Source of the DNA: a virus
Taxonomy: Duplodnaviria; Caudoviricetes
Virus record (IMG/VR): IMGVR_UViG_3300028591_000070
Coordinates: 256,001 to 320,000 of that record
Reading direction: 5' to 3' (one strand)
Length of the DNA: 64,000 nucleotides
Shown: piece by piece, positions 52,225 to 59,416 of the stretch
Layout of the letters: each line of letters starts with the position of its first letter
Position numbering within the stretch: position 1 is the first letter of the stretch
The notes under the pieces: model-generated
Seen by the model: only the letters and a program-made list of their open reading frames with translations
Told to the model about the DNA's origin: nothing
Databases searched by the model: none
Position numbers and translations under genes: made by a program

Positions 52225-53148
52225 TTACCAAGTTACAACACCAATAGTTGCATTATCTTCTGTAAGATGTTCTGTTTCTTCACCAGCATTCTCGATAGAA
52301 GATTCAATACAATCCATAATTGTCTTGTTCAAATTGTTAATTGTTGATACCTTGTATCTTTCACCAAGAAGCTGCTTAAATCCTTTCATATTTTTATCTT
52401 CATAAAAATCTTTATCAGGATTTTCGATATACTTCTTGTTGTTTGAATAACAAGTTTCATCATCATCTACAGAAATATGATAAATATCAAACTTCTTAGA
52501 AGCGGCTTTGTAAAGGTCTGGTGTCTTAAGAGAACCAAACTCTTCAGCGCCTTCAGGACGTCCAAAATATTCAACAATTCTGTTTTCCGGCAAATCAGGA
52601 TTTAATGGCTCATCACCCATCGTAATGATGATACCTTTTCGTCCCTGTTTGTCATAAGCATCAAGTTTTGTACGGTAGAGACCAAAGAACCAAGGAGCTG
52701 TATAGCTTTCCCAGTTATTTCCACCACCATGATGCTCCATCCAAATATCATCAAGCTGTTTTGCTACACGGACATCAGACTCAAACTGAGAAACCTGGAG
52801 TGGAGAGTAGTCACATTCAAAGTCACCAACTCCCATAACCATGATTTCAATATCCTTAAACTTCTTATAAAGTTTATCCATCATAGCGCCCAAAGCTGCA
52901 GCAGTTTCCTGACAAGCAGAACCCATAGAACCTGTAACATCCAAAGCGAGAATTACAGGTATTGTATTTGGGTGTTCAGCAGTGTTGATACATTCACGGA
53001 TTTTGTTCTTAGGATTCATAGTCTCCTTCATTGAAGAAGAAGTCCATGCCTGCCCTGAAGTAACACGCAATGTTGAAGCATCAACACTTTTTTTCATCGA
53101 CCTTGAATAAGTTACAAAGTCTGAACTTGAATATGCTCCTCCACCCAT
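52225..53148 (-). CDS. VWA (MIDAS) domain protein ending VVTW
   Basis: MGGG start, ALDVTGSMG, QVSQFESD, GGGN..ESY, ITMGDE; C-terminus IGVVTW. Confidence 0.88.
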   Translation of the reverse strand: MGGGAYSSSDFVTYSRSMKKSVDASTLRVTSGQAWTSSSMKETMNPKNKIRECINTAEHPNTIPVILALDVTGSMGSACQETAAALGAMMDKLYKKFKDIEIMVMGVGDFECDYSPLQVSQFESDVRVAKQLDDIWMEHHGGGNNWESYTAPWFFGLYRTKLDAYDKQGRKGIIITMGDEPLNPDLPENRIVEYFGRPEGAEEFGSLKTPDLYKAASKKFDIYHISVDDDETCYSNNKKYIENPDKDFYEDKNMKGFKQLLGERYKVSTINNLNKTIMDCIESSIENAGEETEHLTEDNATIGVVTW

Positions 53149-53151
53149 GTT

Positions 53152-54033
53152 TTACTCCTCATCGTCGTCAGCTTCTGCTTCAGCTTTTTCTTCTTCAGTT
53201 GCATCTTCTGCACCTGAGAAATCAAGCTCTGAGAACATACTTGCAAATGGATTTTCACCATCTTCACCACCGAAAATAGCAGCGAATGGATTTGCATCTG
53301 TCTTTCCACCAAACATTCCACCCATCATCTGCATCATAACCATCTGACCAAACATGTTTCCACCACCAAATGGACTGCAAGCATCTGCGACGTTTCCGCC
53401 ATTCATCATACCATTCATCATCTGGCTCATGAGCTGCATTTTAAACATCTGGCCAAACATGTTACCATTAGATGCCATACCTTTAAAGGGACACCAGATT
53501 TTAGCATAGAAGAATACTTTTCCCATAAGGATGTGACGTTCTGGAAGAACCTGCTTAAGTTCGTTGTCTTCATAGTCAAGAGCTGTAATAACTCCGTTAT
53601 CAACCTTGATTACAAAGCGTGGTACGCGGCGGTCACCTTTCTGCATAAGAATAATATCACCAACCTGAAGTGTATTTGTTGGAATAAGCCAGAACATGTT
53701 GAACATGTCAAAAGCGAAAGAACCAACATTTGTCAAGCGGTTTTTTTTAGCATCATAAGTTTTGTAACCACTTGGTGTCTTAATTGCAATTTTACCATTC
53801 ATACCGAGCTTGCACTTTCCTGCCTCGATAGGACCAAACATTCCCTTAAACATCTTACCCATGTCACCCATACCAAAATCGTTCATATCTTTATTCTCCT
53901 TGGGATTTTCTTCCCCATTATTATATTCAATTGAGTAGGAAGGTCTGCTGTACCTAGGTATCATAATCATTCCTTCCTCGCCATAATTCATTCTACTAAA
54001 ATCTGCAAACCTTGTCCAATTTGCTACACTCAT
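53152..54033 (-). CDS. Met/Gly-rich hypothetical protein (second, SD-supported in-frame start at 53886)
   Basis: FKGMFG..GKCKLGMNG.IA.K..YKTY; MMMQMMGG low-complexity C-terminal half; acidic tail. Confidence 0.75.
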   Translation of the reverse strand: MSVANWTRFADFSRMNYGEEGMIMIPRYSRPSYSIEYNNGEENPKENKDMNDFGMGDMGKMFKGMFGPIEAGKCKLGMNGKIAIKTPSGYKTYDAKKNRLTNVGSFAFDMFNMFWLIPTNTLQVGDIILMQKGDRRVPRFVIKVDNGVITALDYEDNELKQVLPERHILMGKVFFYAKIWCPFKGMASNGNMFGQMFKMQLMSQMMNGMMNGGNVADACSPFGGGNMFGQMVMMQMMGGMFGGKTDANPFAAIFGGEDGENPFASMFSELDFSGAEDATEEEKAEAEADDDEE

Positions 54034-54512
54034 AGTAATTTGGCCTTTTTCTTAAGATAAGCTCTTACTAGCATAAGAGTAAATCCAAGAAGGTTTTGTC
54101 CTTGCCACTTTGAAATATCCTGAACCCTTGGGTCATCTTCAGCCATATGAATAGCCCAAATGTTATCAGTAGGATTACATTCAACAAGAATATCATCACC
54201 TGTGTCAAGAAGTTGCTTTGCCAAATCTGGATTTTGTTCAAACTTAGCTTTAAGACCTTCATACACTACAATTTGACGAACACCATTCCAAACAGTGTCG
54301 TTATAATTGCGCACTTTTCTACCAAGACCTTTAATTTCGCTTGGAGAGGTTGAAGCCAGAATTTTCTGAGCAATTTCATCATCTCCAAAAGTCTTAGCTT
54401 TCTGATACATCATCCACTGTTCACTGTTGATAAACTTTACTCCATCAACAGTAAATTCGCTTTTGTACCAGTTACTTAAGAAACCTTTCAAAAAAGGATG
54501 GATTTTAGCCAT
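54030..54512 (-). CDS. NADAR (YbiA-like) family protein
   Basis: FLSNWY, SEQWMMYQKA, GRKV, KFEQN, LVE.NP.D.IW, GQNLLG. Confidence 0.95.
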   Translation of the reverse strand: MAKIHPFLKGFLSNWYKSEFTVDGVKFINSEQWMMYQKAKTFGDDEIAQKILASTSPSEIKGLGRKVRNYNDTVWNGVRQIVVYEGLKAKFEQNPDLAKQLLDTGDDILVECNPTDNIWAIHMAEDDPRVQDISKWQGQNLLGFTLMLVRAYLKKKAKLL

Positions 54513-54515
54513 ATA

Positions 54516-55325
54516 TTACAACTCCTTGAAATAATCTACCATTCCTGAGTCAGGATGTGGCATCTGAATAATTTCAATCTTAAACTTCATCTTGTTATAG
54601 AGTTTAACAATTCGATTAATTTCATCTACTGTAAAATCAACTTCATCCATTTCTCTACGAATAAAATGGTCCAATCTTTCATATGTGAAGTTTGGAATAT
54701 CCAACTGCTTAGAAAGATTCTGCTCATCTGTTGAGCCACACATTCCATCATCTGGAGCTTTCATAACCAAATCTTCTGGAGCACCCAAAGCCAAACCAAT
54801 CTGTCTTACTTCTGAAACAGTGTAGTCACAAATTGGACCATAACTTCCGGCGCTATCTCCATAGAATGTTGAATATCCAAGGACATCTTCGCTGCGGTTG
54901 CAAGTGTTCAAAACACGACCACCAAGAATTGCTGCAACTCCATAAAGAGTTGTCATTCGCAATCTCGCAGGAGTATTTGTAGAATACTGGCTTGGAATTT
55001 CATTGTTAAGAACTCCATTTGATACATCATCCATAAGGTTGACACAAATGGCTCCTGTAAGAGCTCTATAAGCATCACCAATATTTACAGTCAAATTCTT
55101 AATTCCAAGTAATTCACAAACTCTCTTTGAGTCGGCTATGTCCTTCTGTTCGCCATTAGGCATCATAACTCCAACAACATTTTCCTTACCATAAGCTTTT
55201 ACAGCAAGGTAAGCTACGACTGTTGAGTCTTTTCCACCTGAAATACCAATTACGGCCTTTCCAGATGGATTAGATGCTCTCAAGCCATTTACAATATTTT
55301 CAATAGCAAGATTAGCATCAAACAT
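54516..55325 (-). CDS. nadE: NH3-dependent NAD+ synthetase
   Basis: GISGGKDS, NTPARLRM, NRSE..GYST.YGD, KAP.DG..G.TDE. Confidence 0.93.
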   Translation of the reverse strand: MFDANLAIENIVNGLRASNPSGKAVIGISGGKDSTVVAYLAVKAYGKENVVGVMMPNGEQKDIADSKRVCELLGIKNLTVNIGDAYRALTGAICVNLMDDVSNGVLNNEIPSQYSTNTPARLRMTTLYGVAAILGGRVLNTCNRSEDVLGYSTFYGDSAGSYGPICDYTVSEVRQIGLALGAPEDLVMKAPDDGMCGSTDEQNLSKQLDIPNFTYERLDHFIRREMDEVDFTVDEINRIVKLYNKMKFKIEIIQMPHPDSGMVDYFKEL

Positions 55326-55327
55326 AA

Positions 55328-56800
55328 CTACTCAATCTCCTTAGCAAGGCGGGCACGAATATCCATCAAATTCTGGCGGTTGAAATAAACACCATTTACG
55401 AAAACAACCTGCATTTCATCTTTGTGAGCTGCAGCAAGTTTATCATATTCATGTTCAGTCAAACCATCTGTTGCAACATAGTCATTTCCAACTTTTTCAA
55501 CAAAAACCAAACCTTTGTGAGATTTCTTAAGTTTTGCTGTATCAGTTTTTGGATCTTTTACAACTTCAAGTTCGCGGCCGTCCATAAGCTGAATATATGT
55601 AGTTTTCTGTGCAAAACCGAAAGTATCACGAGTTGATACAATCATCTTGTCACCTTCAAAGAAAGCATGGAAACAGAAAGCACCTACACCAAAGAGACAG
55701 TTTGTTGCGGCAAACTTCATTTCTTCAAGCTTTTTCCAGATTTTTTCAACCTGTTTAAGAGTACATCCATCACCGAGGATCATTCCAACATGTGGATTTA
55801 ATACCTTGTAACCCTTCTTGTTTTCAGTACCACCAAATGTTTCCCAAAGAGACTGAACTGTCTGGATAACATTTTCATACTGGTCACCAGAGTCTGGACG
55901 AATAAGGATTTTACCTTCGTGAGCAAGAATTTCTTCTTTAATTTCAGGAAGAACATTCTTTACAATGTCCCAATAATCATAAGTATCGGCAACATAGCTG
56001 AAGTTTTTGTACTGCTTAAGAAGCTTGAGAATAAGCTCTTTTTCAGAAGTGCCAACAGCAACATTTGAACTTACTACAGAGTGTTCAATTGAAACTGCAC
56101 CAATTCCAAGGTGATTGTAAGAACAATCAGCATTGTAGAAATAATCAAGCCAAGAAATAGCAGGAACTGTTGAAGTCTTATTGAATGAAATCAACCAAGA
56201 AGCAGAAGTTTTACAAGCTTCTTCCATACAAGACATTCCGCGCATTCCAAAGTCTGAAGCAGCCATACGAGGGTCAGCACCATCTGTTGTTTTGTCATAC
56301 CACTTCTTTGCGATTTTGTAGTACATATAACCAGCAGTTGCGTCATTACAAGGCTTCCAAACTTCACCCTGCAACCAGCATTCTGTCCACTGAGCCAACC
56401 AAGCAAAATCAGGGTCTGTATTTTCTACAGAAGCGATAGGAACTCCCATATTTACAAGAGAACCTTCTGGAAGAGCTTTAATCTTAAGTGGAAGATAACC
56501 GAGACGATGCAGCTTTTCAATGTGGCTTGTTTCATAGTTTCCTGGGCCAAGCTGAAGATTCATCTTCTTTTCATAATCTGCGATTACTTCAGAAGTAGGC
56601 TTAGCAAACCAAGCATCTGCATTTTCTTTGAAATTTTTAATAAAGGCTTGAATACCGAAAACAACAACTTTCTGCTGTTTTTCGAACATAGATTTGCGGG
56701 GAACAAGATAACTAACGAGTTTAGTCATCCCTTTTGGATAAACGTCAACATGACAGTTTTTGTAGGTGTCAGCTACATCAGGCATCATAAAATGAAACAT
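55328..56800 (-). CDS. Nampt/Namat-family phosphoribosyl (or ADP-ribosyl) transferase, probably nicotinate-preferring
   Basis: DTYK..H, DFGMRG, SFNKTSTVPA, EHSV, DTYD, IRPDSGD, GDG, FGVG, RDT.GFA.K, KDPKTD..KKS.KG. Confidence 0.9.
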   Translation of the reverse strand: MFHFMMPDVADTYKNCHVDVYPKGMTKLVSYLVPRKSMFEKQQKVVVFGIQAFIKNFKENADAWFAKPTSEVIADYEKKMNLQLGPGNYETSHIEKLHRLGYLPLKIKALPEGSLVNMGVPIASVENTDPDFAWLAQWTECWLQGEVWKPCNDATAGYMYYKIAKKWYDKTTDGADPRMAASDFGMRGMSCMEEACKTSASWLISFNKTSTVPAISWLDYFYNADCSYNHLGIGAVSIEHSVVSSNVAVGTSEKELILKLLKQYKNFSYVADTYDYWDIVKNVLPEIKEEILAHEGKILIRPDSGDQYENVIQTVQSLWETFGGTENKKGYKVLNPHVGMILGDGCTLKQVEKIWKKLEEMKFAATNCLFGVGAFCFHAFFEGDKMIVSTRDTFGFAQKTTYIQLMDGRELEVVKDPKTDTAKLKKSHKGLVFVEKVGNDYVATDGLTEHEYDKLAAAHKDEMQVVFVNGVYFNRQNLMDIRARLAKEIE

Positions 56801-56807
56801 AATTTTT

Positions 56808-56902
56808 TATCTCCTATATAAGTCGAATATGTTTTTTGATAGTCACTAAGAACTGTGCCACCTAATTATGGTTATTCTTAGCAACATCTAAATTATATTA
56901 AC
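56808..56902 (-). promoter_or_regulatory. class II promoter plus structured 5' leader (candidate riboswitch-like motif), copy A
   Basis: GTTAATATAATT; stem GTTGCTAAGAAT/GTTCTTAGTGAC enclosing CCA-TAATTAGG-TGG; tail TTCGACTTATATAGGAGA. Confidence 0.6.
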
Positions 56903-57683
56903 AGACTTCTACGAAGTCGTTAGTACCACGGTAAATTGAATTTGTAGTAAATACTTTTGTAATTCCAGCTTCTTTAAGAGCATCAATATCAATTACATTT
57001 TCGCAGTGTGAAATGTAGAGATATACATCTTTTGCTCCAAGCTTTTTAAGCTCAATAGCTGAATATTTGAAAGTACCACCTTTTGAACAAATATCATCAA
57101 TGATGAGAATGTTCTTATCTTTGATAGCTTCTGGATTTCCCTTAATTTCAAGACCAAGGATTTTTCCGCTGCGCCAATCACGAGTTTTTTCACCAACTAC
57201 GATTTCATAATTTTCTTTAACTATATCCAAAGTAGAATAGCGTTTACAAGCACCAGCATCTGGGAACATAATTGTCTCAACATCAAGTGGAAGTTCTTTC
57301 AAGAAGTTTTCAATTGTCTGAAGTCCATTGTCCTGAATATTATCGATAAGAGCGCGAGAAACATCTGAGTGTGCATTATCAACAATAACAGCCTTAAAAT
57401 CCATTGCATTTAAAACTTTTGCAAAAGACTTAAGAGTAAATACTTCATCTGGATTTTTAACACGATCCATTCGTGCATTTGGAATATAAGGCATCTCCAA
57501 GAAAAGATTGCAGCCTTTATAAAAATCAGCAATACATTGAAGAGTGAAAAGTTCACTCATAGAGTCAAACAACCAAGTTACAGTTATCTGCTGATTATTT
57601 TTAATCTTAGGGTCAAGTCGAAAAAGTGGAGTTCCATCAGGAAAGTTTTCAACTTTAATTTTAATGTCATTTACTTTAATCAA
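56898..57683 (-). CDS. Prs-like pyrophosphokinase (candidate Adps, ADPR-PP synthetase)
   Basis: FPDG, MPYIPNARMDR, AHS, FPDAGA..RY, K.RD..SGKI, IIDDICSKGGTF; adjacent to Nampt-like gene. Confidence 0.92.
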   Translation of the reverse strand: MIKVNDIKIKVENFPDGTPLFRLDPKIKNNQQITVTWLFDSMSELFTLQCIADFYKGCNLFLEMPYIPNARMDRVKNPDEVFTLKSFAKVLNAMDFKAVIVDNAHSDVSRALIDNIQDNGLQTIENFLKELPLDVETIMFPDAGACKRYSTLDIVKENYEIVVGEKTRDWRSGKILGLEIKGNPEAIKDKNILIIDDICSKGGTFKYSAIELKKLGAKDVYLYISHCENVIDIDALKEAGITKVFTTNSIYRGTNDFVEVC

Positions 57684-57724
57684 AGGTTTTTCCTCATATC
57701 CGCCGGCAAAAGCCGGCTGGAATA

Positions 57725-57958
57725 TTAGCGACGCTTACGAGGAGTTCTTCCCCACATCTGCATCTGTTTTACAAAAAAATCATACAACTCGTTAAAGTCG
57801 TGATTACCTTCACTGGCAACAAGAGCGATATACTCTCGTGCGTCCGCTACATCTTCAGAGCACTTAGCTCGGCCGATGTAGTTTTTGATAATTCTTTTAG
57901 GATTATCAATAGCATCCTTCTTTGTGAAGGAGTCTACACCAAGGTTCTTTTTATCCAA
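57725..57958 (-). CDS. small hypothetical protein
   Basis: class I promoter (TTGTAA-17-TATAAT, 57979-58007) and GGAGG SD. Confidence 0.65.
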   Translation of the reverse strand: MDKKNLGVDSFTKKDAIDNPKRIIKNYIGRAKCSEDVADAREYIALVASEGNHDFNELYDFFVKQMQMWGRTPRKRR

Positions 57959-57996
57959 GACCTTTCCTCCATAAATAGATTATACCAAGAGTTGGA

Positions 57997-58545
57997 TTAT
58001 TTTACAAAAATTTGTTGTGATTTAAGTACATTCATTGCAGATTTTTGACCTTCTTCAGAGAGGTCAGCACAACAAGAGCTATCAACTATTATTGGCATTT
58101 CTGGAAAAAATGACTTAAGTAAAGTGGCGTTACTACAAACACAGATTGATGAAACTGTTCCAATAATTTCAATCTCTTCAGGGAAGTCACCAGGCTGATT
58201 ATTTTCATCATTGAAAAGTTCGTTAAATTTAGCTTTCCAGTCTTTATAGCCAAATGTAGGCTTGTCAACAATAAATGCATTTTTTGCAAATTCCTGAAGT
58301 TCTGGAACGATTTCCCAACCTTTTGTACCTTCAATGCAGTGTTCAACTGGAAGATTTTTTCCTTCCTGTGTTTCAAGATAATTTTTTTGATGTGTATCGC
58401 GAGTAAAAATAAGATATGTGTAGTCTTTAGCTTTAAGCTTTTCTACAATATTTGGAATGATTTTTTCTGCGGCAGGATTTGCCAAAGAACCAGTTACGAA
58501 GTCGTTTTGCATATCAACGACAATAAGAAGTTTGTTTTTCTTCAT
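57997..58545 (-). CDS. pncA: nicotinamidase (isochorismatase family cysteine hydrolase)
   Basis: VVDMQNDF, DTH, PVEHC..GT.G, DK.TFG, ICV..N; located in NAD cluster. Confidence 0.88.
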   Translation of the reverse strand: MKKNKLLIVVDMQNDFVTGSLANPAAEKIIPNIVEKLKAKDYTYLIFTRDTHQKNYLETQEGKNLPVEHCIEGTKGWEIVPELQEFAKNAFIVDKPTFGYKDWKAKFNELFNDENNQPGDFPEEIEIIGTVSSICVCSNATLLKSFFPEMPIIVDSSCCADLSEEGQKSAMNVLKSQQIFVK

Positions 58546-58553
58546 GTTTTCTT

Positions 58554-58657
58554 TTCTCCTATATAAATCGAAAATAGTTTAGTTTACTAAGAGAAGATCC
58601 GACCAACTTTTCTTATGGCTAATCTTCTCATTCAACTAGGTATATAATTATATTAAC
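58554..58657 (-). promoter_or_regulatory. class II promoter plus structured 5' leader (candidate riboswitch-like motif), copy B
   Basis: GTTAATATAATT; stem GAGAAGATT/GATCTTCTC enclosing GCCA-TAAGAAAAGT-TGGT; tail TTCGATTTATATAGGAGA. Confidence 0.6.
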
Positions 58658-58660
58658 ATA

Positions 58661-58702
58661 TATCCCTATAAAGAATATACATTAATATTTAAATTAGTTC
58701 AT
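58661..58702 (-). promoter_or_regulatory. class I promoter upstream of pncA
   Basis: ATGAAC-17-TATATT-CTTTATAGG. Confidence 0.6.
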
Positions 58703-59416
58703 TTGAAAATACTCATTAGCTTTCATACCAGGCCAATAAGCTCTTTCATCTTCTCTATCACTATTTTTAAGTTTTTCAAAATGTTCGTCCATTTTAGTAA
58801 AGACATTCTGAAGAATTTCTAATTTGTTAAACTTTGTAAGAGCATTAATAAATGTTTTATAGTATTCTTCATAGATGCGTTCATGCTGACCTTCACCATA
58901 ATCAAGGTCGATATAAGTATCTTTGAATAAATGATTTTCTACGACATAATGATATGTAGCTGCAACAAGATTTTTAATATCAATCCATTCATTTCTAGAT
59001 GAACCTACGAAAAGTTGATAAACTTCAGACTCTGGAGGATTTTCGAATTCTGAATATATTTCACTTATTTCAGCGTCTTCATCGTCAATGCTGTCATAAT
59101 ATAAATGACCTTCATAATCTGGAGCACCAACATATTTATGAGTACCTTTATGACCTATCCATTTAAGGCCAAAAGTATCAGTAAACTCATACTCATGTAA
59201 TCCAAACTGTTCAGCATCTCTTTCTAGAGAATAAAAATCTGGTGGATTAAGGTCATTGTTTTTATAAATACTATCAGACCTACGAGCTCTAGTGGCCATA
59301 TAAATTTTGTTCCATTCTGTTTGCTCTTCTACAGAACCAGTATATGGTCGCCATTCCCATTTTTCTGGAAAATACTTTACATAATTGTTATAATATCTTC
59401 TAACTTCTCTGCTCAT
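58694..59416 (-). CDS. hypothetical protein
   Basis: 240 aa ORF. Confidence 0.7.
   Translation of the reverse strand: MSREVRRYYNNYVKYFPEKWEWRPYTGSVEEQTEWNKIYMATRARRSDSIYKNNDLNPPDFYSLERDAEQFGLHEYEFTDTFGLKWIGHKGTHKYVGAPDYEGHLYYDSIDDEDAEISEIYSEFENPPESEVYQLFVGSSRNEWIDIKNLVAATYHYVVENHLFKDTYIDLDYGEGQHERIYEEYYKTFINALTKFNKLEILQNVFTKMDEHFEKLKNSDREDERAYWPGMKANEYFQMN

Follow-up and report, generated by a model that had tools for sequence, protein, structure and literature searches.

What would a phage do with a nicotinamidase, a pyrophosphokinase, a nicotinamide phosphoribosyltransferase-like enzyme and a nicotinamide adenine dinucleotide (NAD+) synthetase if it lacks a mononucleotide adenylyltransferase (NMNAT)? 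The question is raised by a 386-kb phage genome from the gut (IMG/VR record IMGVR_UViG_3300028591_000070; 385,934 bp, CheckV completeness 100%). We analyzed bases 256001 to 320000 of this record, a stretch of 64,000 nucleotides referred to here as the window, in which six minus-strand open reading frames (ORFs) are tightly packed between positions 54030 and 58545. Five of them are co-oriented genes for a PncA-like nicotinamidase, a Prs/Adps-like kinase, a Nampt/Namat-like transferase, an NH3-type NadE and a NADAR-domain protein; the sixth is a 77-amino-acid (aa) ORF. NAD+ depletion is a common end point of anti-phage systems (Thoeris, DSR, SIR2-HerA, short Argonautes), and phages are so far known to rebuild NAD+ by three pathways. 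These are the NAD+ reconstitution pathways NARP1 and NARP2 (bioRxiv 10.1101/2024.02.11.579819) and NARP3, which consists of PnuC and NadR (PMC13464706). Structures of the NARP1 enzymes Namat and Adps are available (PMC12774641, PMC13586617), and a bacterial NARP1 of the Asp type has been described (PMC12774641).

A first-pass annotation of the window proposed that its five genes form a NARP1 variant working through deamidated intermediates. Our follow-up supports this interpretation, each of its computationally testable predictions having been borne out, and we consider it probable that the module is a deamidated NARP1, in which NAD+ would be rebuilt via nicotinate, ADP-ribose pyrophosphate (ADPR-PP) and deamido-NAD (NaAD). 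The trigger would be the splitting of NAD+ into ADP-ribose and nicotinamide by host NADases. The PncA-like enzyme would convert nicotinamide to nicotinate and ammonia, and the Adps-like kinase would use ATP to convert ADP-ribose to ADPR-PP. The Namat-like transferase, with a Ser in place of the Asp that reads the amide and with a remodeled pocket, would then join nicotinate to ADPR-PP and form NaAD directly. The NH3-dependent NadE would complete the route from NaAD to NAD+, perhaps reusing the ammonia released by PncA, and NADAR, as an accessory member, may free ADP-ribose from conjugates. No NMNAT would be required, consistent with the finding of none in the genome. The substrates, the products and the counter-defense role in this scheme are all predictions from sequence, drawn from the families of the proteins, their intact catalytic residues, the pocket substitutions, the linkage within the clade and the absence of an NMNAT gene. 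Firmicute hosts quickly deamidate nicotinamide, and it is plausible that a nicotinate-using transferase fits the pool available there. More speculatively, the phage might gain from a deamido-NAD that resists NADases or from access to nicotinate pools.

The transferase and its pyridine pocket

The gene set listed by the first-pass annotation held up. ORF translations and searches of Pfam, PHROGs and NCBIfam gave concordant family assignments for all five genes. The annotation had also noted the lack of an NMNAT or NadD gene, and PF01467 (the fold of NadD, NadM, NadR and NMNAT) indeed matched nothing in either the window or the complete 385,934-bp record, in searches that were positive for 14 of 14 control genomes. 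A genome-wide search found a single Prs-like gene and a single NAPRTase-family gene in the entire phage. These two genes are adjacent on the same strand with 97 nt between them, and nadE starts 3 nt past the transferase stop codon.

The transferase matched phrog_448 ("nicotinamide phosphoribosyl transferase") with 490 bits. Its best solved relative was the Namat of SPbetaL1 (9w5x; 325 bits), and NAMPT scored about 150 bits. An AlphaFold2 model (predicted local distance difference test score, 91.2) superposed best on the same Namat structure, with a template modeling score of 0.91 and 36% identity, followed by Haemophilus ducreyi NadV and human NAMPT; such a model informs on fold and secondary structure only and says nothing direct about ligand contacts. 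The catalytic His240 was retained, as were Arg187, Arg301 and Asp303, which bind ribose and phosphate.

The pyridine pocket was different. The motif FNKTSTVPA, translated from positions 56159 to 56185 of the minus strand, had been read by the first-pass annotation as placing Ser210 at the position of human NAMPT Asp219. Translation and a HMMER alignment with 9w5x bore this out, with Ser210 facing the Asp of FTGTDTIPA (Asp215) in Namat. Namat Asp215 hydrogen-bonds nicotinamide, Ala242 is a named residue of the nicotinamide pocket, and a D215A change in SPbetaL1 Namat lowered NAD+ formation about 8-fold (PMC12774641). The annotation had further taken Asp219 to be a residue that distinguishes nicotinamide from nicotinate, and published work agrees: the D219S mutation changes which substrate NAMPT prefers (PMC4919578 table 2, citing Khan et al. 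2006), and Ser214, at the equivalent position of human NaPRTase, helps direct nicotinate specificity (PMC4442680).

We gathered related loci from IMG/VR and GTDB genomes, using as queries an alignment of Ser-type proteins, an alignment of classical Asp-type Namat and an alignment of a third group found among representatives at 50% identity; with reference NARP1 loci added, the set came to 326 loci. Alignment queries were needed, as a search with a single protein retrieved no related locus, and a Megablast search of the 6-kb region against GenBank phages gave zero matches. At each locus, we scored homologs of the window genes within 10 kb of the transferase gene, with detection profiles seeded from the window's own proteins. 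The counting unit for linkage was the transferase cluster at 70% identity. The transferases of 329 loci formed 76 such clusters, 47 with Asp or Glu at the Asp215 column (acidic) and 29 with Ala or Ser (non-acidic). In a FastTree phylogeny with RB43, D485 and a eukaryote-like Nampt as the outgroup, 59 Namat-like rows formed one clade (support, 100) with the window protein in its non-acidic branch. The non-acidic transferases thus appeared as the sister clade of classical Namat, outside Nampt.

When the columns of 46 acidic and 29 non-acidic clusters were compared, seven split perfectly, three of which line the nicotinamide site. All 46 acidic clusters had Asp or Glu in the Asp215 column, where all 29 non-acidic ones had Ala or Ser. 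The Ala242 column was Ala in all 46 of the former and Ser in all 29 of the latter. The column of Namat His187, which by motif matching would be the position of His191 in human NAMPT, was likewise His in 46/46 and Gly, Ser, Ala or Asn in 29/29. Two residues before the Asp, a Gly was present in 46/46 acidic clusters. In its place, 11 of the 14 Ser-type clusters had Lys, and 8 of the 10 Ala-type clusters with the insertion described below had Asn. A positive or polar residue at this position (Lys208 in the window) could bind the carboxylate of nicotinate. To judge from these columns, the pyridine pocket is remodeled as a unit. Because of these pocket changes, the published data on NAMPT D219S and the NaPRTase Ser, and the obligatory presence of a nicotinamidase and NadE, we regard nicotinate as the very likely acceptor of the transferase.

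Ala was a commoner replacement than Ser. The first-pass annotation was right about Ser210 and had missed this point, the covarying pocket residues and the NrtR-linked Clostridium operon described below. The 120 closest homologs of the window transferase (down to 52% identity) all had Ser and the same insertion in the clamp. Among the 150 best representatives at 50% identity in a library of 1.84 billion proteins, 103 had Asp or Glu and 47 had Ala, Ser or Val. With 47 of these 150 being non-acidic, the variant represents a large radiation.

Linkage to PncA and NadE

The Asp-to-Ser change proved to be a family trait tied to neighboring genes. A Prs-like gene was found in all 47 acidic clusters and in 25 of the 29 non-acidic ones. 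PncA and NadE were found in none of the acidic clusters and in 25 and 27, respectively, of the non-acidic clusters (Fisher P = 3e-16 for PncA and 1e-18 for NadE); since the non-acidic transferases are one clade, these statistics describe one origin kept together over deep divergence, not independent events. The few missing partners lay mostly at contig ends, and the linkage persisted through several gene orders. The five-gene arrangement is not chance, since the same gene set recurs in the 29 transferase clusters. PF01467 was not found in 22 of 29 related viral records, including most of those that are complete.

The neighboring enzymes fit the roles proposed for them. The solved structures closest to the PncA-like protein were nicotinamidases (1ilw/1im5, 2h0r, 3pl1 and 2wt9), as were most of its top solved matches. 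Aligned with Pyrococcus horikoshii PncA (1ilw), it had the Asp-Lys-Cys triad and the Asp-x-His...His metal site, with 6 of 6 residues identical. Its score for the NCBIfam equivalog was far below the cutoff, so we regard it as a divergent member of the nicotinamidases. NadE matched TIGR00552 with 133 bits (cutoff, 64), its best solved relative was 2e18, and its ATP pyrophosphatase P loop, of the SGGxDS type (GISGGKDS), aligned with 2e18. It is a single synthetase domain with no glutaminase domain and therefore should use free ammonia. We also considered a Francisella-type NadE acting on nicotinate mononucleotide (NaMN), 3fiu being the second-best solved match, and rejected it; that route also needs an NMNAT, which is absent. 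The NADAR protein matched PF08719 (167 bits; cutoff, 35) and TIGR02464 (153 bits). A NADAR homolog lay within 10 kb of the transferase gene in 35 of 106 Ser-type, 20 of 75 Ala-plus-insertion and 3 of 85 acidic loci. Judged by their residues, the individual enzymes of the module look active.

These results bear on a simple alternative, that the module is an ordinary NARP1 that uses nicotinamide and that PncA, NadE and NADAR are unrelated auxiliary neighbors. The side-by-side arrangement of the Prs-like and Nampt-like genes, known from NARP1, and the intact catalytic His, Arg and Asp would fit this alternative. However, the Asp whose replacement impaired Namat (D215A; PMC12774641) is absent throughout the clade, two further pocket residues covary with it, a PncA would remove the substrate, and the linkage to PncA and NadE, nearly complete among the non-acidic transferases, is 0 of 47 in acidic clusters. 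We therefore hold this alternative to be very improbable.

Three sets of loci deserve separate description. In IMG/VR, 14 classical NARP1-type loci (L217-L243) had Glu at the nicotinamide-binding position (GSETIPA) and a Prs-like neighbor, and PncA and NadE were not found there. A related phage lineage (L262:5109-15291; also L259 and L283) had an expanded NAD module, with genes in the following order: HD (SpoT-like) hydrolase, PncA, Prs-like protein, CobB-like SIR2 deacylase, long-insertion Ala-type transferase, DarG-like macro domain, NadE, NADAR, NadM-like NMNAT (TIGR01527, 48 bits) and metallophosphatase. Finally, the Clostridium manihotivorum chromosome (L131:7683-11455) carried an operon of an NrtR-type regulator (NUDIX plus NrtR winged helix), a Prs-like gene, PncA and an Ala-type Namat, among neighbors that are not phage genes (4-alpha-glucanotransferase and a LacI regulator). 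By gene content, then, the putative nicotinate-type module also exists as an operon in a bacterial chromosome. Regulators of the NrtR family are repressors responsive to ADP-ribose, which would suit an operon that consumes this compound. In five host genomes, a long NadE (~650 aa) was encoded elsewhere in five of five and a second NAPRTase-family gene in four of five, so the bacterial module is an addition and not a replacement. The idea that the bacterial copies stand in for housekeeping genes was rejected, the hosts keeping their own long NadE.

The kinase and the identity of the donor

Whether the transferase uses ADPR-PP or phosphoribosyl pyrophosphate (PRPP) is the weaker link of the deamidated NARP1 reading, and the case for ADPR-PP is made here from sequence relationships. 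The Prs-like protein matched phrog_619 ("ribose-phosphate pyrophosphokinase") with 215 bits and TIGR01251 with 83 bits, under the cutoff of 113. As in Adps, the Prs N-terminal unit was missing. In a tree of 164 Prs-like proteins, the canonical Prs of five host genomes formed their own long-branched clade (support, 99). The window protein fell within a clade (support, 99) of kinases paired with Ala/Ser transferases. This clade was nested in a larger one (support, 97) together with the Prs-like proteins that accompany classical Namat, among them those from the FADO and PBC2 loci. ICP1 Adps, an enzyme of demonstrated activity (PMC13586617), was on the other side of the tree, adjoining Prs. As the first-pass proposal implied, the Prs-like protein thus sides with Adps rather than Prs, and the transferase with Namat rather than Nampt.

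The Adps enzymes of SPbetaL1 and ICP1 pyrophosphorylate ADP-ribose (bioRxiv 10.1101/2024.02.11.579819; PMC13586617). In ICP1 numbering, the donor site includes Cys215 and Phe221 of the PP loop, Gly192 of the hairpin and the catalytic Lys185 (PMC13586617). The window protein had the same residues in these columns (Cys199, Phe205, Gly173 and Lys166). Six canonical Prs proteins, the only ones compared, had Val or Ile at column 192, Ile at column 215 and Ile, Met or Val at column 221. Among ICP1 isolates, the adps frame of 2019_Mat_D (L327:2016-2714) stops before the PP loop, and the gene of 1992_Ind_M4 (L342) is intact (280 aa); some ICP1 isolates may thus be without NARP1 function.

Two IMG/VR jumbo-phage contigs with Ser-type transferases (L004 and L005) had the gene order PncA, transferase, NadE, Prs-like. 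Their Prs-like proteins clustered with the partners of Glu-type transferases (support, 100) and not with Prs; the kinase gene thus seems to have been exchanged for one of a different Prs-like lineage, likewise paired with Namat-type transferases.

The clamp that selects the donor gave a less uniform picture. The selectivity-clamp motif has been defined for Namat (PMC12774641), where the helix reads GSFTYQYNTRD. In the window transferase, the corresponding helix reads GAFCFH, then a 9-residue insertion, then VSTRD, and so departs from the published motif. Phe is preserved at position 3 of the motif, and Val occupies position 7. In the AlphaFold2 model, the insertion forms a beta hairpin at residues 379 to 388. 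Of the 150 best representatives, insertions of this kind were present in 36 of the 47 that are non-acidic and in 2 of the 103 that are acidic. The early-branching Ala-type members retain the clamp motif in the exact form GSYTYQYNTRD, which agrees with the published one, and the Arg of the clamp loop was kept in 15 of 15 Ala-type clusters and in 3 of 14 Ser-type clusters. Because the window subclade departs from the published Namat signature, use of ADPR-PP is less secure there than in its Ala-type relatives. In two Asp-type Namat homologs (P0135 and P0194), insertions of several hundred residues sit inside the clamp motif, between GS and TYQ. They begin with Cys, end with His-Asn and look like an intein at the active-site entrance.

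A hairpin specific to the clade at the active-site entrance, and a pocket changed at more positions than D219S alone would require, could also mean that the useful product is something other than NAD+: deamido-NAD or another pyridine dinucleotide that serves as a NADase inhibitor or signal decoy, or a product made from a different pyridine base. The NADAR, macro, SIR2 and phosphatase genes that join the module in some lineages would suit such a role. On the other hand, the retention of NadE in 27 of 29 clusters, together with its position right beside the transferase gene in the window, points to amidation as the last step, and the nicotinamidase active site of PncA is complete. We consider a product of this sort improbable.

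The main rival to a deamidated NARP1 is a phage-boosted Preiss-Handler pathway, in which, with nicotinate again supplied by PncA, the Prs-like protein would make PRPP, the transferase NaMN and the host NadD NaAD, leaving the last step to the phage NadE. The pocket changes argue for nicotinate in this case too, and a catalog of gut "NAD-jumbo phages" filed their NAMPT, pncA and nadE genes under standard pathways (PMC11662467). Several further points weigh against our reading. In the adenine clamp of the window subclade, GS has become GA, the Tyr396 position is taken by the 9-residue hairpin, and the third residue of the clamp loop, which would stack on adenine, is Met38 (followed by Phe39) and not Arg, Lys or Tyr. 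Both of the Ser residues that contact the phosphate of nicotinamide mononucleotide have been lost (Gly185 and Ala374). Namat itself also accepts PRPP in vitro (PMC12774641; bioRxiv 10.1101/2024.02.11.579819), hosts possess their own NadD, and the L259, L262 and L283 lineage has a NadM-like NMNAT gene within its module. The association with PncA and NadE traces to a single origin maintained by selection and not to repeated independent events, the loci were collected via sequence patterns and do not form a random sample, and the trees were made by quick methods (a short IQ-TREE search with Shimodaira-Hasegawa-like approximate likelihood ratio test support, and FastTree).

The kinase speaks for the other side. 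It belongs to the Adps lineage and has the donor-site residues, and the Adps enzymes of SPbetaL1 and ICP1 act on ADP-ribose. Where the Prs-like gene was exchanged, the new one derived from another lineage of Namat partners. Moreover, of the four Preiss-Handler steps the phage encodes three, and a kinase besides, yet it has no NadD, which 22 of the 29 related viral records lack as well. Supply of NadD by the host fails to explain why NadE is carried and NadD is not, because the hosts already have NadE too. Taken together, we give the Preiss-Handler alternative a minor but real chance.

Layout of the module and relation to known pathways

The positions of the module genes and of the residues discussed above are collected in Table 1. 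The 77-aa ORF between pncA and the Prs-like gene had no match in Pfam, PHROGs or NCBIfam, and phmmer found no homolog of it in 161 related loci; it may lie outside the pathway. A direct repeat of 38 nt, whose two copies are 79% identical, covers the start codon and upstream leader of the transferase and pncA genes, which suggests a shared translation or regulatory signal. An Rfam search of positions 53800 to 59000 found no known riboswitch, and the leader repeat matched no Rfam family; the sole match was a subthreshold SAM-III inside the Prs-like gene. Two ORFs lie directly downstream of NADAR (52225-54033). The first (293 aa) overlaps the NADAR gene by 4 nt and had no family match, and the second (307 aa) belongs to phrog_2971, which has no assigned function. 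Both may be cotranscribed with the NAD module.

Table 1. Features of the NAD module, in window positions
Feature	Position	Strand	Details
PncA-like nicotinamidase, first module gene	57997..58545	-	182 aa; Pfam Isochorismatase 83 bits
77-aa ORF between pncA and the Prs-like gene, no assigned function	57725..57958	-	no family match
Adps-like (Prs-fold) kinase, predicted ADP-ribose pyrophosphokinase	56898..57683	-	261 aa, TTG start; Pribosyltran 27 bits; phrog_619
Namat-like transferase, predicted nicotinate ADP-ribose transferase forming deamido-NAD	55328..56800	-	490 aa; NAPRTase 78 bits, NAMPT_N 33 bits
Single-domain NH3-dependent NAD+ synthetase NadE	54516..55325	-	269 aa; NAD_synthase 143 bits
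NADAR-domain protein, accessory member	54030..54512	-	160 aa; Pfam NADAR 167 bits
Codon of Ser210, position of Namat Asp215 and NAMPT Asp219	56171..56173	-	alignment and translation
Codon of Ser237, position of Namat Ala242, nicotinamide-pocket residue	56090..56092	-	perfectly split column
Codon of Ser182, column of Namat His187 (FADO His188), which precedes Phe189 by two residues	56255..56257	-	split column
Codon of Lys208, column of the invariant Gly (human Gly217) that precedes the Asp by two residues	56177..56179	-	column comparison
Remodeled selectivity-clamp helix region, residues 373-392	55625..55684	-	GAFCFH, 9-residue insertion, VSTRD
Leader at the transferase start codon	56798..56835	-	38-nt direct repeat, copy 1
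Leader at the pncA start codon	58543..58580	-	38-nt direct repeat, copy 2

Among known systems, the module is most like NARP1 (SPbetaL1, Bas63, FADO, ICP1 and Paenibacillus foliorum). Both have adjacent, co-oriented genes for a Prs-fold and a NAMPT-fold protein, a kinase of the Adps lineage with the donor-site residues and a transferase closest to Namat, and both lack an Nmnat in the genome. They differ in the Ser that replaces the nicotinamide-binding Asp, in two more switched pocket residues, in the clamp motif interrupted by a 9-residue hairpin with GS changed to GA, and in PncA and NadE, which are obligatory partners here and were found in no classical NARP1 locus that we examined. The predicted product of the transferase is NaAD here and NAD+ in NARP1. 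NARP2 (Nampt plus Nmnat/NadM, as in Vibrio phage KVP40) also rebuilds NAD+ with a NAMPT-fold transferase; unlike NARP2, the module has no Nmnat, has a Prs-like partner and has a transferase that falls outside the Nampt clade (RB43, D485). NARP3 likewise restores NAD+ against NAD-depleting defenses (PMC13464706), but through unrelated proteins and from nicotinamide riboside; PF01467, the fold of NadR, was absent here, and PnuC was not searched for.

The Preiss-Handler pathway (PncA, PncB, NadD and NadE, including the clusters of PMC11662467) resembles the module in that a nicotinamidase comes first and NadE last, the amide being removed and then restored. The module departs from it in having an Adps-type kinase and no NadD, in the lineage of its transferase, which is that of Namat and not of PncB, and in a predicted route that bypasses the mononucleotide. 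The transferase shares with the human NAMPT D219S mutant and with NaPRTase (Ser214) a Ser where the pyridine substituent is read, a feature linked to nicotinic acid use. In this case, the substitution occurs naturally throughout a clade, comes with more pocket changes and lies in an enzyme lineage that uses ADPR-PP as the donor.

In the literature on NARP1 to NARP3, the Namat and Adps structures and NAD-jumbo phages, we found no mention of a nicotinate-type Namat, of the Ala/Ser clade or of a link to PncA and NadE, and we found no paper that reports direct formation of NaAD from ADPR-PP and nicotinate. We lean, if only slightly, toward a broader conclusion as well: that the Ala/Ser clade of Namat-like proteins comprises nicotinate ADP-ribose transferases and that these enzymes, acting alongside PncA, Adps and NadE, constitute a fourth NAD+ reconstitution pathway, of a deamidated kind. 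This pathway would be widespread in gut phages and would be found in Clostridium chromosomes as well, at least once as an NrtR-linked operon, where it would recycle NAD+ breakdown products as part of everyday physiology.

If this is true, it implies a new enzyme reaction, in which a dinucleotide is made directly from nicotinate and ADPR-PP, and would show how a handful of residues in the pocket of a NAMPT-fold enzyme can encode a switch of substrate. It could also account for the success of gut Firmicute phages in hosts where nicotinamide is rapidly deamidated. The combination of the Ala/Ser signature with PncA and NadE would provide a simple annotation rule for hundreds of phage and bacterial genes now labeled "nicotinamide" or "nicotinate phosphoribosyltransferase." Finally, the NrtR-type operon of Clostridium suggests that ADP-ribose recycling may be part of normal bacterial NAD+ homeostasis.

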